Source of the DNA: an uncultured archaeon
GTDB taxonomy: Archaea > Asgardarchaeota > Thorarchaeia > Thorarchaeales > Thorarchaeaceae
Reading direction: 5' to 3'
DNA length: 32,000 nt
NCBI GenBank assembly: GCA_964648855.1
Contig: CAZYLT010000011.1
Coordinates: 60,001-92,000 of the forward strand
Made by a program: the position numbers and the translations under genes. Below, one piece after another: positions 1 through 10,105 of the stretch (positions within the stretch are counted from its first letter, which is position 1; the number at the start of each line of letters is the position of its first letter). The notes below the pieces were generated by a model. The model did not search any database, was not told where the DNA came from, and saw nothing but the letters and a program-made list of their open reading frames with translations.

Positions 1-1426
1 TTTGCAAACCGGAAAATAGCCTTAACACCCCAAAAACAAGGATTCCAACTGTCATGAATATTAGCATAGAAGTGACAGCAACCCATGGGGGAATCTGCCC
101 CCTTCTAGAATCCAAGTACGCTCTGGGGTCAGACACCATTGCACGAATCTCCTCTTTTATCGCCTTAATTGAGAATAACTGCCCTCTTACTCTCATGAGC
201 CTATCAAGTTCAGAGGGCGAATGTGGGTCTTCTATGACTACACCCTGATATTCATTGAATTCCGTATTCTGCTCATTGACCGAACGTTCAAACTCATCGC
301 GTGATAATTCGTCAGGACTTCTACTCGTGACAACATCCCCAAGAATAATAGATGCAAACACTCCTAGCGCAAGATAGAGAATCTCTGGTCTAGTGAGATG
401 TTCTCCAAAGGGAATGAATGCAGCACCCTCAATAGCCAGCCATATGACTAGAGAGGCGAGGCTTCCCGCTGCCATGACTAAGACCCGCTTCCATCCAACA
501 AAGAACCCAATGGCTGCAATTAATGGTGAATTGCTAATCCCTATCCAATCCGGGACAATGGGGTTCACTGCATGAGGAAAAGAGCTGAACGTGGCTGGTG
601 CTTGTGTTCTAGAACTGACTACATACTCTGCAGCTCGTGTGGCCGCAGTCCAAGATGCCGCAGCTCCAAGGCCTGCTATTACCGCTGTCTTTGTGTCTAC
701 ATCTGCACCAAGGCAATTGATGCACTCCGCCTGAGGCAAAACTTGCGGCCAGGGCTCATTCATGAATCTATCCCTAAATGGCACCATTAGAATCAGTCCA
801 AATATCGCGCTCGCTCCTGTCACGAAGGCTATAAATTGATACGTAATTAGCGATGAAGCGATACTCGGCTGAAAAATGGCGATGGCCGGAAAAGTGATTA
901 GAACGCCAATGGAAACCATGGACGAGCTATTGGCTATAGATACGACCACTGCATTTTCTTCCGGAGTGTATTTTCCAAACATTGTCAAAATCAAGAAGCC
1001 CAGTAATTCCGCCCCAACGAAATAGACAACACCCAGCTTCAGCGCGAGATAAATGCCCAAGAAAGTCATGACTACTCCAACTATAACGCCTGTAGTCAAC
1101 GCTCTCTTAGTCAAGGGAAACTTTGGCTTACTGGTAACAAAACCGTATATTGCCAAGCTACCTGCAGCCATTACAACAATCTCTGAAAACGCACCCAAGA
1201 CTAGCGATAATGAAACATAAAGCACTACTCCTAGGCACAGCAGACCTAGGCTCTTTTTATCAAGGGGCCCCGTAACCAAAGAACCGACCAGAAGCACAGA
1301 TTCGATCACTATTGTGGTGATGACACCATAGTCCGTCCTACCCTGAAAGAGAACGATAAGTGCATAGAAAAGCCCTGCAATATATAAACCTAGCAAGAGA
1401 GCTCGGTCTGACTTGGGCTTCTTCAT
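1..1426 (-). CDS. OPT/YSL family oligopeptide transporter (3' end outside the window)
   Basis: Not in the ORF track because it has no stop in the window. Manual translation from ATG 1426: MKKPKSDRALLLG...FPLTKRALTTGVIVGVVMTFLGIYLALKLGVVYFVG...KYTPEENAVVVSIANSSS...LITFPA...EPWPQ. The LTxRA, YxxLKxG and EN motifs match OPT-family N-termini; many TM segments. Confidence 0.8.
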   Translation of the reverse strand, partial: MKKPKSDRALLLGLYIAGLFYALIVLFQGRTDYGVITTIVIESVLLVGSLVTGPLDKKSLGLLCLGVVLYVSLSLVLGAFSEIVVMAAGSLAIYGFVTSKPKFPLTKRALTTGVIVGVVMTFLGIYLALKLGVVYFVGAELLGFLILTMFGKYTPEENAVVVSIANSSSMVSIGVLITFPAIAIFQPSIASSLITYQFIAFVTGASAIFGLILMVPFRDRFMNEPWPQVLPQAECINCLGADVDTKTAVIAGLGAAASWTAATRAAEYVVSSRTQAPATFSSFPHAVNPIVPDWIGISNSPLIAAIGFFVGWKRVLVMAAGSLASLVIWLAIEGAAFIPFGEHLTRPEILYLALGVFASIILGDVVTSRSPDELSRDEFERSVNEQNTEFNEYQGVVIEDPHSPSELDRLMRVRGQLFSIKAIKEEIRAMVSDPRAYLDSRRGQIPPWVAVTSMLIFMTVGILVFGVLRLFSGLQ

Positions 1427-2831: not shown

Positions 2832-3569
2832 CTATTCATTGGCGAAGATAATCTCGCGTATACGTCTGTGAAGATTTATGTAATCTTCTTGACCAACCGA
2901 ATGTATTTCAATAAGAAATTCGAACAAATCAAGCAGGTCTTTGTCGGCTAAATCGCCTCTAATCATATTTGCGACTTCTTTCCGTGGTTGCATCTCTAAC
3001 TTGTATTTCTTAAGCAGCAGCTCCACTAGTTCTTGTTGATGCTCCTGACTCAAACTCACATCAAACTTCTTTATGAGTTTCTGGACATATTCTTTGCTTT
3101 TCTTTTTGAGCACCTTTTCATCGGCGTCAAGCATTCCTGTTGTGAGCACGAACCCCTTAGCTGTCCTCTGATAGTAATCCGTAGTTCGTTTCCCTGTTGT
3201 GACCGTGCCATACTTGATTACGTAGTCGGCATCAATGAGTTTAGGGAGGTGGTGATAGACTTGATTCTTGGTTATTTCTTCCGCTCCCTCCACCTTCGTT
3301 GACTGTTTCACGATTTCAACCACGGACAAAGCATGTCGCTGGACTTCACGTTGGCGGATGATTAAATCCCCCGTCTTCTCATCCCGTTTCTCTGTCGTGA
3401 CAGTGTCAGGCATTCCCTCCCTCAGTACTCTAAGAATTGAAAGCCTTGCGCTATCATCCAGCTCAGCAGCTCTCTCCGGATCCTTTATGAAAACGATCTC
3501 TTCCTGAGGTTTCTTCCCCTCTTCCGTTAATTCGATACCTTCTAGGCTATCTGGAATGTCTGCGTTCAA
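2832..3569 (-). CDS. Winged-helix (ArsR-like) transcriptional regulator with helical C-terminal domain
   Basis: LDDSARLSILRVL...LSVVEIV...TKNQVYHHLPKLIDADYV...YYQRTA is an ArsR/HTH_20 pattern with an insertion. Start placed at TTG 3569 after GGAAGGA (ORF track start 3605). Confidence 0.8.
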   Translation of the reverse strand: MNADIPDSLEGIELTEEGKKPQEEIVFIKDPERAAELDDSARLSILRVLREGMPDTVTTEKRDEKTGDLIIRQREVQRHALSVVEIVKQSTKVEGAEEITKNQVYHHLPKLIDADYVIKYGTVTTGKRTTDYYQRTAKGFVLTTGMLDADEKVLKKKSKEYVQKLIKKFDVSLSQEHQQELVELLLKKYKLEMQPRKEVANMIRGDLADKDLLDLFEFLIEIHSVGQEDYINLHRRIREIIFANE

Positions 3570-3702
3570 TGTCCTTCCGTCCACTTCTACTGCAGCTAGG
3601 CACAATTTTCTAGCACTTAAGTATAGAAAACACGGATTATAAGGTTAACGATTGAATTACAAACGTACATTATGTTATTTTGTTGTGACACAAATAGTTT
3701 TG

Positions 3703-3720
3703 TGTATAAAGGTTTATACA
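3703..3720. promoter_or_regulatory. Perfect palindrome TGTATAAA-GG-TTTATACA, candidate operator
   Basis: 8-bp inverted repeat with 2-bp spacer, between the divergent wHTH gene and the peptide ORFs; TATA-like TTTATAT at 3738-3744. Confidence 0.6.
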
Positions 3721-3777
3721 ACAAACCATGCGTAATATTTATATGTGTTTGGCACACTATAAAGTACGTGAACAAAA

Positions 3778-3885
3778 ATGGCTGAAGCAAAGAATGCAAC
3801 CAAAATGAGTCATCTGAAAACCAGGCCAATGGGCAACGTGCAAAACACTGAAGCTCTTGGTTATGCATACCAATATCGGAGGTAA
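3778..3885 (+). CDS. Small peptide 1 (35 aa, MAEAKNATKMSHLKTRPMGNVQNTEALGYAYQYRR)
   Basis: ATG preceded by GTGA and by a TATA box ~35-40 nt upstream; homologous to the next ORF at both ends. Confidence 0.6.
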   Translation: MAEAKNATKMSHLKTRPMGNVQNTEALGYAYQYRR

Positions 3886-3890
3886 ACTAC

Positions 3891-3971
3891 ATGGCTATTG
3901 CTAAAGACAAAAAGAATGAGAGAAAACACATCTCCACCAATGCAATCCTTTACTCTTACTTCAGAAGGTAG
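3891..3971 (+). CDS. Small peptide 2 (26 aa, MAIAKDKKNERKHISTNAILYSYFRR)
   Basis: GGAGGT RBS 7 nt before the ATG, overlapping the end of peptide 1; shares MAxAK and TxAxxYxY..RR with peptide 1. Confidence 0.65.
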   Translation: MAIAKDKKNERKHISTNAILYSYFRR

Positions 3972-4073
3972 TTCGTAATGGTATCCCCATATCAATCAAA
4001 TCGACCGGAAGACAGAGATAACGATTGTCACTCAGTAGACCCCAATAGAGGGCGTGACCTCTCATGCAAAGAA

Positions 4074-4101
4074 GTGCTCATGCTCGAAGCGACATGAGCA
4101 C
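4074..4101. terminator. Hairpin GTGCTCATG-N10-CATGAGCAC followed by a pyrimidine tract
   Basis: 9-bp perfect stem, then CTTCTCTTTTC; lies between the convergent peptide ORFs and the methyltransferase. Confidence 0.5.
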
Positions 4102-4137
4102 AGGCTTCTCTTTTCAAACCTTACTTTAACATACTAT

Positions 4138-4947
4138 CTACTTCTTGAAGACAATTCGATAGAACGTATCATTCATGATATAGTCTACTTCAACATCCCG
4201 TGCCTTGCCTGGAAGGTGCTCAAGTGGAGGTCTAGTATCGAAAAGAGCGTTTTCTTCAATAATGGCTCTTCCCCTAGATTCATTTCTGATCTTCGGTGAT
4301 ATCCCCTCGTCAATTACAACAACAGTCCCTTCATTTACTGTAACTCTAAGCATTTCCTGTAGGGCGTCTTCCTTTTCAGAAAATGTATTCAGTCCACCTG
4401 TATGTACTACAGTATCGAAGTAGTCACTCCGAAACGGGATCTTGAATACGTTTCCCTTTACAAGATTGACATTCAAGCCGACTTGTTTGAGCTTTGACCT
4501 AGCAACCTCTAGCATCCCGTCTGAAACGTCCAACCCGTGCATCGATAGTTTGGATACTTTATCTTTCATAGCATTTCGAAGCGCGATGAAATTGGCGCCT
4601 GTACCGATACTAACATCGAGGATATTGATTTGACCTGTGTTTGGCAAAAACTGAACAAGGTCTTCTCGTTCTTTCATCATGTCAACCTGCAGCCAGCCGT
4701 CATAGCTTTGTACCGCTTCATCATACTTACTTGCCACGTTATCGTATTCAGCAACCCATTTTCTATCCTTATCCTTCAGGGGGGGATACAACAAATCAAC
4801 AATCGAATTTTCAATACTCCAGTAGTGCCCCTTTTCGCACGTTACTCCTCCTGTAACAATGGACTCGTTCTGCTCCAATATCTCAGTAAGATGCATCTTT
4901 CTGCTGCATTTTGGACAACGTAAGGCATCTAAATCCTCAATTTTCAG
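4138..4947 (-). CDS. Class I SAM methyltransferase (UbiE-like) with N-terminal Trm112-like Zn ribbon
   Basis: ILDVSIGTG, GLDVS, FDTVV motifs. The frame stays open upstream of ATG 4896 and adds LKIEDLDALRCPKCSRK, which pairs with CEKGH; probable CTG start at 4947. Confidence 0.8.
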   Translation of the reverse strand: MKIEDLDALRCPKCSRKMHLTEILEQNESIVTGGVTCEKGHYWSIENSIVDLLYPPLKDKDRKWVAEYDNVASKYDEAVQSYDGWLQVDMMKEREDLVQFLPNTGQINILDVSIGTGANFIALRNAMKDKVSKLSMHGLDVSDGMLEVARSKLKQVGLNVNLVKGNVFKIPFRSDYFDTVVHTGGLNTFSEKEDALQEMLRVTVNEGTVVVIDEGISPKIRNESRGRAIIEENALFDTRPPLEHLPGKARDVEVDYIMNDTFYRIVFKK

Positions 4948-5042: not shown

Positions 5043-5342
5043 TTATTCGACAGGAAATTCCCTTTCCTCTGGGTGATCAAGAACAAATCTAATTTCATAA
5101 AGCCTATCTGCGATAGCCTGTCCCCTATCCGTCAGAGCAAGATAGGGGCTTCCTGCTCCCCCCTTATACTCGTTGGCAAGTTGTAATTCTACCAATCTAG
5201 ACTTGATGGCTTCGAATGAAGCCTCGGGGTCATCAACGAGATCTTGCAGACGGGAAATGAGGTCCCGTTCGAACTTGTCACTCCATTTTAATGCAAACAG
5301 GAGTTCAAGGACGGGTCTTTGTATCAGGTATTCGAGAGACAT
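5043..5342 (-). CDS. Small winged-helix (MarR-like) protein
   Basis: 99 aa; RLVELQLA...YLALTDRGQAIA wing motif (LTxxG). Confidence 0.6.
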   Translation of the reverse strand: MSLEYLIQRPVLELLFALKWSDKFERDLISRLQDLVDDPEASFEAIKSRLVELQLANEYKGGAGSPYLALTDRGQAIADRLYEIRFVLDHPEEREFPVE

Positions 5343-8988: not shown

Positions 8989-10105
8989 ACACCTTGTTTG
9001 CTTGAGGTGAATAGACACCATCACATTCTTCATCTCTACTGCTTCCAACAAATATCAACAGGCCGAGCGTTGACATGAATGCTGCAAAAATCATTATTGC
9101 ATGATAACCGGGCCAAAGTGCAAACAGCACAGTAGCGATAATCGGGCCCAAAACCCCTGATATTGACATGACAGATGTTAGAAGGCCGGAGGCGGTTGAT
9201 CTGTCCAAGTTTCGTTCTGTGACGTACTTGAGCGCTCCAACATAAAGGCAAGACCAGGCAAAGCCAAGGATGATTTGTGTTGGGATGACCTGCAGCACGT
9301 TCGTGACGAAAACAAGCGAAGTGAAGGTTAAAGCCGAGCCAACAAGTCCGGTTGCAACAAGTGTTCTACATCTGAATCTATCTGTGAAACCAGCCATGAA
9401 TATGACCTGTGAAACTGCATTTGTCGCTTGAATCATGCCAATTAGGAAGTAATCCGCACCAATATCGAATAGGAATAATGGCCAAAGTGTCCATAGAGCA
9501 GAGGCACTGCTATGGCGGATTAAGACTGCAGTGTATACTGACCAATTACGTTTCAGAGTTTCAATAGGAAATAGAGGAACATCTACTGCTGGATGATGCA
9601 CAGTGGGCAGCGTCATTGTGCAGACAAAAGCCAGCGCAAAGAATAGAGTAGATACCAAAAATGAATTGTATATTCCAAAACCTGCTGCAAATCCTGCAGC
9701 TACCGTTCCAATGCCCCATCCAACAGCTCCGAAAGCGGCGAATTTTCCCATCTTGATATCCGACTCAAATGCATACGCCGCAAGAGCTCCCGGATACATT
9801 CCGATGCAGAAGCCGTTTAGAATGCGAATAACAAATAGGATTGACGGATCTGAGGCAAACAGCAGAAGTGTAGAGCTTACAGTGCACAGAAGGAGTCCTC
9901 CCCTCAGGATAATCCGCCTCCCATAAATATCCCCAGCTCTTCCGAAGATATAGGATGAAACAAATGCTGCAATAGCATAAGCACCAACAATGAATGTGAT
10001 ATAGAACTCATCTGTGCCAAGAAACTCTCTAGCAAGAATTGGTATGTAGGTGCCAGCTGAGAATACAGCCGCACCCGCCATCATCTGGATTGTCTGAGTA
10101 CGCAA
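8981..10105 (-). CDS. MFS transporter
   Basis: Motif A (GRAGDIYGRR), 12 hydrophobic segments. Confidence 0.85.
   Translation of the reverse strand: MRTQTIQMMAGAAVFSAGTYIPILAREFLGTDEFYITFIVGAYAIAAFVSSYIFGRAGDIYGRRIILRGGLLLCTVSSTLLLFASDPSILFVIRILNGFCIGMYPGALAAYAFESDIKMGKFAAFGAVGWGIGTVAAGFAAGFGIYNSFLVSTLFFALAFVCTMTLPTVHHPAVDVPLFPIETLKRNWSVYTAVLIRHSSASALWTLWPLFLFDIGADYFLIGMIQATNAVSQVIFMAGFTDRFRCRTLVATGLVGSALTFTSLVFVTNVLQVIPTQIILGFAWSCLYVGALKYVTERNLDRSTASGLLTSVMSISGVLGPIIATVLFALWPGYHAIMIFAAFMSTLGLLIFVGSSRDEECDGVYSPQANKVSS

Follow-up and report, generated by a model that had tools for sequence, protein, structure and literature searches.

A winged-helix regulator and a conserved inverted repeat adjoin a three-gene micropeptide operon in Thorarchaeaceae archaea

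We analysed a 32,000-nucleotide (nt) stretch of DNA, hereafter called the window, from the 3.1-Mb genome of an uncultured archaeon of the family Thorarchaeaceae (assembly GCA_964648855.1, contig CAZYLT010000011.1, positions 60,001 to 92,000 of the forward strand). This report concerns a cassette in which a gene for a winged helix-turn-helix (wHTH) regulator is transcribed leftward and three micro-genes are transcribed rightward, with the two transcription units diverging from a shared intergenic gap that holds a conserved 17-base-pair (bp) inverted repeat. The features of the locus, in window coordinates, are as follows.

2832..3605, minus strand: regulator gene, a 257-amino-acid (aa) open reading frame (ORF) that starts with TTG where the sister species has ATG
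3636..3643, minus strand: TATA-like box CTTATAAT (minus-strand reading), recognized by sequence, in a block identical in the sister species
3683..3693, no strand: palindrome TTGTG-A-CACAA, a candidate second, weaker operator site
3703..3720, no strand: perfect palindrome TGTATAAA-GG-TTTATACA from the initial annotation, recognized by sequence
3711..3727, no strand: 17-bp inverted repeat GGTTTA-TACAA-CAAACC (M1), a candidate operator of the adjacent regulator
3738..3744, plus strand: TATA box TTTATAT of the peptide operon, as initially annotated, and identical in the sister species
3778..3885, plus strand: micro-gene 1, 35 aa, with orthologs in 18 loci
3891..3971, plus strand: micro-gene 2, 26 aa, a paralog of gene 1 kept in 13 of the 18 orthologous loci
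3978..4097, plus strand: micro-gene 3, 39 aa, acidic product, with synonymous variation and a conserved end motif
4074..4115, plus strand: terminator-like hairpin with a 9-bp stem (4074-4082/4093-4101), followed by a pyrimidine/T tract (4105-4115)
2..1426, minus strand: OPT-family gene (Pfam OPT match), to the left of the cassette

The three micro-genes encode proteins, as judged from the variety of synonymous codons at conserved positions, a bias among codon positions, and ribosome binding sites that chain each gene to the next. At invariant alanine positions the codons GCT, GCA, GCC and GCG are all in use, invariant tyrosine positions employ TAT and TAC in a ratio of 8:8, and synonymous variety is also evident at invariant arginine positions. 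When same-genus pairs are compared, differences are distributed over the codon positions as 63/59/103. GGTG-type ribosome sites are located 6-8 nt ahead of the start codons of all three genes. The site of gene 1 is GTGA at 3768-3771, the Shine-Dalgarno sequence GGAGGT of gene 2 (3878-3883) is built from the Arg-Arg-stop codons of gene 1 (CGG AGG TAA), and the AGGT site of gene 3 (3966-3969) overlaps the stop codon of gene 2 (...AGG TAG). Furthermore, the same small ORFs recur on the opposite strand upstream of nearly all orthologs of the regulator. A reading of the gap as a non-coding RNA or a leader-peptide region was considered and rejected on account of the codon-level conservation and the chained ribosome sites. 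The initial annotation of this DNA, which was made from the sequence alone, had reported two rightward peptides; both of these genes are real, but a third conserved micro-gene (3978-4097) had been missed. In two genera, the ATG of gene 2 is replaced by CTG followed by a conserved A-L-A-K (L024:10091-10180, plus strand; L028:8584-8679, minus strand), which suggests that a non-canonical start codon is used.

Genes 1 and 2 encode basic proteins with tyrosine-rich ends, and gene 3 encodes an acidic protein. The product of gene 1 has an isoelectric point (pI) of 10.0, begins MA-x-AK and ends A-L-G-Y-A-Y-Q-Y-R-R; across the orthologous loci, its length is ~35 aa and its end takes the form ...A-[IL]-x-[YF]-A-Y-x-Y-R-R. 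The product of gene 2 (pI 10.3) spans 26-30 aa across the loci and ends ...S-T-x-A-I-x-x-S-Y-x-Y-R(R), and that of gene 3 (pI 4.7) spans ~38 aa and closes with the conserved motif E-V-L-x-[LW]-E-A-T. The three products are all strongly hydrophilic, exhibiting grand average of hydropathy (GRAVY) values of -0.9 to -1.1 and longest hydrophobic runs of 2-4 residues, in agreement with the initial remark that the peptides lack a hydrophobic signal sequence. Both of their termini are conserved, unlike a layout of leader plus core. Searches of Pfam, NCBIfam and Rfam gave no match for the peptides or the gap, and the ESM Atlas gave no usable match.

Because the peptides are hydrophilic and carry no export signal, their site of action is most likely intracellular. 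They probably work jointly, as a pair of basic proteins that end in an aromatic ladder and an acidic partner produced in fixed proportion. A complex prediction, in which the three peptides were entered as alignments with the acidic one as the partner, gave a score of 0.02, which speaks neither for nor against binding. That the peptides associate with nucleic acid or the ribosome is a guess that we offer with low confidence.

The operon closes with the hairpin, to which the Val-Leu-Met codons of gene 3 contribute together with the 4 nt past its stop codon, and which overlaps the last 7 codons. A 9-bp hairpin with a pyrimidine tract had been described initially, and most of 15 genomes keep a hairpin that runs into a T-rich or pyrimidine tract; one of the 15 has no clear T run. 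The stems show compensating changes across genomes. In two genomes (G007 and G019) the hairpin has been relocated, yet the end motif of gene 3 is kept, which indicates that the constraints on the peptide end and on the hairpin are both real. These data support the initial proposal that the stretch is a complete transcription unit encoding only peptides, all of which are micropeptides.

Gene 1, searched as a profile, has matches in 77 of 87 genomes of the class, often several per genome. In a phylum-wide sample, the profile matches 44 of 48 Thorarchaeaceae genomes, usually in multiple copies, and none of 152 genomes from 24 other Asgard families. Only 20 matches, all 33-49 aa in length, were recovered from 1.84 billion protein representatives, and the ten match clusters that were inspected are unnamed or carry the label 'hypothetical protein'. 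We found no description of this operon in the literature on small proteins or micropeptides of Thorarchaeota. The micropeptide operon is therefore undescribed in the literature searched, and it is restricted to Thorarchaeaceae among the genomes searched.

Two more complete cassettes reside in the genome of the window, at C2:39109-39520 (L043) and C19:15984-16390 (L044), and no regulator is near either one. Their promoters are identical over ~85 nt, starting with the palindrome GTAACAA-T-TTGTGAC. The general form of this palindrome, GTMACAA-W-TTGTGAC, has only four copies in the genome, two of which are at these cassettes. The other two precede a 435-aa ORF (C1:229925) and a degenerate peptide-like micro-ORF (C5:159731). 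Another genome carries five near-identical cassettes, in which the repeated unit extends exactly from ~90 nt before gene 1 through the terminator. Neither an OPT gene nor a regulator gene is found near the dispersed cassettes. In one unusual dispersed cassette, from another genus (L053; G015:C45, 1501-3067), two basic micropeptide genes are followed by a gene for a 453-aa MFS_3 'transmembrane secretion effector' transporter, which replaces the acidic third peptide gene and is joined to its predecessor by a stop/start overlap.

Orthologs of the regulator are present in 23 of 24 genomes of the family. The initial annotation had named gene-neighbourhood conservation as a check on its proposal, and the divergent pairing of regulator and peptides indeed holds in at least 18 genomes representing at least 14 genera, within a gene order (OPT, DUF167, profilin, profilin, regulator, peptides, methyltransferase) that is family-wide. 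A profile made from 20 orthologs matches PH1932 of Pyrococcus horikoshii (PDB 1ULY/2CWE) over residues 98-239 with E=3.4e-11. An AlphaFold2 (AF2) model of the regulator, with a mean predicted local distance difference test (pLDDT) score of 82.8, has an N-terminal extension, a wHTH domain with an inserted beta-hairpin, and a four-helix C-terminal domain. Its best Foldseek matches are again 1uly/2cwe (E about 2e-8, probability 1.00), and the next are VanR and PadR. With Pfam, only sub-threshold similarity to PadR (PF03551; 19.5 bits versus a cut-off of 27) and to HTH_20 was obtained, and no tetratricopeptide repeat (TPR) domain was detected. The C-terminal helical domain is conserved and has invariant residues, and by eye the alignment contains no invariant Cys/His cluster outside the recognition helix. 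By sequence and by fold, the regulator belongs to the PH1932-like branch of the ArsR/SmtB superfamily; its initial description as an ArsR-like wHTH protein with a helical C-terminal domain is thus borne out by profile, AF2 and Foldseek results alike.

PH1932, the best match by both profile and fold, has the same two-domain layout of wHTH plus C-terminal helices. However, the two proteins share only ~19% identity, and the Thorarchaeota regulator adds an N-terminal extension of ~40 residues and the beta-hairpin insert in the wHTH domain. Our literature search found no described target or ligand for PH1932, and so this protein gives no functional guide. PadR of B. subtilis, known in complex with operator DNA (5X11), and VanR, known in complex with vanillate (5Z7B), also combine a wHTH domain with C-terminal helices. 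These repressors bind an inverted repeat as dimers, and are often autoregulated and divergently arranged relative to their target. The fold matches to them are weak (E 0.004-0.02, template modelling scores of 0.2-0.3), and no phenolic-acid ligand is implied. The regulator and its operator are a new member of an ordinary kind of system.

Between genera, the gaps that separate regulator and peptide genes cannot be aligned except for one recurring element, GGTTTG-N5-CAAACC, whose fullest form is GTTTGTG-A-CACAAAC. A site with at most one mismatch is present in 17 of 20 orthologous gaps. The element usually abuts the TATA box, such that CAAACC is directly followed by TTTATAT. A second copy often falls in the interval from the TATA box to the ribosome site, and another is found beside the leftward TATA box that precedes the regulator gene. 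The possibility that CAAACC before the TATA box is a mere transcription factor B recognition element (BRE) was rejected, given that the GGTTTG half-site 5 nt upstream is conserved and that whole copies occur away from the TATA box. In the 3.1 Mb of the window's genome, there are four sites with at most one mismatch, three of which are inside long ORFs; only 3711-3727 is intergenic. A search of that genome for other promoter-placed copies, which would point to a regulon, found none.

The nearby palindrome TTGTG-A-CACAA (3683-3693) matches once in the window versus 0.03 matches expected, is a single copy in the genome, and is kept in the sister species except for one base. It corresponds to the core of the full operator form, GTTTGTG-A-CACAAAC, that is seen in genus g3 and others, and it may represent a weaker second operator site. 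A more divergent regulator (40% identity) also keeps the repeat and a TATA box in its upstream region (L041; G002:C16, regulator 9043-9765). This regulator faces a single micro-ORF that starts with M-A-L-A-K but differs in its end, which has no Tyr ladder.

The initial annotation had assigned the operator role to the perfect palindrome TGTATAAA-GG-TTTATACA. This palindrome is indeed present at 3703-3720, and the genome scan then proposed for it confirms a single occurrence in 3.1 Mb. The operator role did not survive comparison. The gap is 91% identical to that of the same-genus genome, and the palindrome is its least conserved stretch, being no longer palindromic there. The window contains five perfect inverted repeats with arms of at least 8 nt and loops of at most 4 nt, versus 2.8 expected, and the chance of finding one such repeat in the 172-nt gap of 28% GC is about 6%. 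The palindrome is thus only weakly improbable and is not clearly above chance. Its right arm lies inside the 17-bp repeat, the overlap between them being GGTTTATACA, and its left arm (3703-3710) reads TTTATACA on the minus strand, directly following the repeat. Because the minus-strand repeat runs straight into this left arm, the perfect palindrome appears to be a side effect of direct contact between a TATA-like box and the real repeat. The lesson for genome scanning is that a striking perfect palindrome can arise in this manner from a TATA box and an adjacent operator.

Several observations link the repeat to the regulator. An ortholog of the regulator that has no neighbouring peptides (L075) still carries GGTTTTTTATACAAACC ~55 nt before its start, and regulator paralogs with quite different neighbours (L071-L073) have upstream GTTTG-N6-CAAAC-type repeats of their own. 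In addition, the cassettes are split by the type of switch they carry. Among four genomes, all four regulator-adjacent cassettes have the repeat and are devoid of GTCACAA-W-TTGTGAC, and 11 of 14 dispersed cassettes have GTCACAA-W-TTGTGAC at a fixed position of -84/-85 and are devoid of the repeat. There are exceptions, as one dispersed g3 cassette has the repeat and a g9 locus has two repeats followed by the other palindrome. The upstream copies at L075 and L071-L073 and the split between switches indicate that the repeat belongs to the regulator; the pairing of the two is conserved.

A composite arrangement was seen at two loci (L086, G009:C4; L087, G023:C8; ~1500-1800), where two GGTTTG-N5-CAAACC-type repeats are followed by GTCACAA-W-TTGTGAC and a TATA box. 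These promoters precede a more divergent, Tyr-rich micro-ORF that ends ...E-N-L-Y-Y-E-Y...

We favour a reading, with a probability of about 0.58, in which the regulator is an autoregulated repressor that acts locally, on the one copy of a multicopy three-micropeptide operon of Thorarchaeaceae to which it is linked. A single promoter with its TATA box at 3738-3744 would drive the three translationally chained genes, and transcription would end at the hairpin and T tract. A dimer of the regulator is predicted to bind 3711-3727, and perhaps also the weaker site at 3683-3693. This repeat is flanked by the two divergent core promoters. On the leftward side, the TATA-like box at 3636..3643 lies ~30 nt ahead of the regulator start codon and is a candidate promoter for that gene. 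In most genera, the repeat occupies the BRE position beside the TATA box, with a second copy over the start-site region, and binding there would block transcription factor B and TATA-binding protein, or the polymerase. The regulator would keep the peptide operon, and also its own gene, repressed until it is released by a signal, for which the peptides themselves may be one candidate.

For a winged-helix dimer on a 17-bp inverted repeat, the half-site centres are about one helical turn apart. A repeat at the BRE/TATA position and over the start site is the usual geometry of repression in archaea. On these grounds we take the regulator to be an autoregulated repressor of this copy of the operon. 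We infer that it represses rather than activates, and that it is the protein bound at the repeat. For the genus of the window, control of the regulator's own gene is better supported than control of the peptides, because 10 nt intervene between the repeat and the peptide TATA box, and the leftward TATA-like box is immediately adjacent to the repeat.

Other observations weigh against this local-repressor reading. The 10-nt distance to the TATA box, together with a mismatch in one half-site of the repeat, makes control of the peptide promoter less certain in this genus than in others. The adjacency of regulator and peptides falls within the family-wide synteny block and, since the order of the whole neighbourhood is kept, adjacency alone is weak evidence. 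Peptide cassettes beside the regulator paralogs, which were sought as independent support, were not found. The presence of the repeat, in other genera, at a few cassettes far from any regulator fits action in trans, and it also fits a different binding protein. Finally, the sequencing runs listed as matching this DNA include no RNA run; they are DNA runs from microbial-mat metagenomes, which may be the source sample.

In the Asgard archaea, whose gene regulation to our knowledge has hardly been studied, sequence alone here suffices to name a specific transcription factor, together with the 17-bp element that is its likely operator and the operon it would control. The target belongs to a multicopy micropeptide family that gene callers leave unannotated, and knowing which switch controls which copy would offer a first handle on the timing of peptide production. 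Moreover, there are two types of switch, in some cases within one and the same promoter, which suggests a small regulatory network built around the peptides.

Among the alternatives, the one that survives best, though we regard it as rather unlikely, is that the shared location reflects synteny only. The regulator would then control itself or other genes, and another factor would bind the repeat at the peptide promoter. The family-wide conservation of the whole neighbourhood order is consistent with this possibility, as are the occurrence of the repeat at cassettes that have no regulator nearby and the N6, rather than N5, spacing of the repeats upstream of the paralogs. However, the repeat remains with the regulator after the peptides have been lost (L075), it is absent from most cassettes without a regulator, and its sole intergenic copy in the genome of the window is in this very gap.

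A second alternative is that the micropeptides are the regulator's own signal, binding its C-terminal domain inside the cell or after export and uptake, which we consider unlikely. The strictly intracellular version, the anti-regulator role that the initial annotation had offered as its fallback and which we judge slightly less probable still, holds that one or more micropeptides bind the C-terminal helical domain and either free the regulator or lock it on DNA. Conservation of the pairing in at least 14 genera speaks for such feedback, and both the conserved helical domain with its invariant residues and the lack of export features in the peptides are compatible with it. Yet the dispersed cassettes are more numerous than the regulator-linked copy and rely on a different switch, and the regulator paralogs and one ortholog have no adjacent peptides. 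Were the peptides nevertheless to be the signal, the linked copy could be a feedback node or sensor through which the many dispersed cassettes are coupled to one transcriptional switch, and the locus would represent a peptide-responsive Asgard circuit based on an ArsR-type rather than a TPR-type receptor.

It is very unlikely that the peptides are exported antimicrobials or pump-associated peptides, akin to leaderless multi-peptide bacteriocins, with the regulator exerting producer-side control. Each operon does encode several short peptides that are leaderless and cationic, multiple copies exist per genome, and one cassette is joined to an MFS exporter gene. Against these points, the GRAVY values near -1 are accompanied by neither an amphipathic or hydrophobic helix nor a Trp-rich core, and one of the three peptides is acidic. 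Bacteriocins of the aureocin A70 type are cationic, hydrophobic or amphipathic, and membrane-active, and their genes adjoin immunity or ABC transporter genes, whereas no immunity or ABC transporter gene is present at the micropeptide locus, whose neighbours are the methyltransferase and the regulator.

The initial annotation had likened the cassette to the Rgg/SHP (RRNPP) systems of Firmicutes, in which regulator and very short peptide genes are likewise divergent and an oligopeptide transporter gene is nearby, but a quorum circuit of this kind, with peptides exported, re-imported by the OPT protein and sensed by the regulator, is highly improbable, because the ArsR/PH1932-type regulator is no TPR receptor, the hydrophilic peptides have no hydrophobic export segment and are conserved at both ends rather than as leader and core, and most cassettes are far from any OPT or regulator gene. 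The OPT gene is indeed present (2-1426), 2.3 kb away as initially stated, but a specific link between it and the cassette is not supported: DUF167 and two profilin genes separate it from the cassette within the family-wide synteny, and the dispersed cassettes have no OPT gene. The locus further departs from RRNPP systems in lacking a hydrophobic pro-peptide, in chaining three genes, and in the many regulator-free copies per genome. The MFS_3 'secretion effector' gene that replaces the third peptide gene in L053 leaves export as a minor option.

Beyond the cassette, Rfam and tRNA scans of the window gave no matches. A UbiE-like class I methyltransferase gene (4138-4896, minus strand) is convergent to the peptide operon and occupies the same position in most of 20 related loci (~13 full-length, two fragments and one weak match). 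Just past it lies a conserved 99-aa ORF without a family match (5043-5342, minus strand). One of the regulator paralogs (L072; G006:C53, 1660-6029) immediately precedes a gelsolin-repeat gene on the same strand; an actin gene is close by, and a PAS histidine kinase gene diverges from the paralog. Both regulator lineages therefore adjoin genes of the actin cytoskeleton, represented by two profilins in the window and by the gelsolin-repeat and actin genes in L072.

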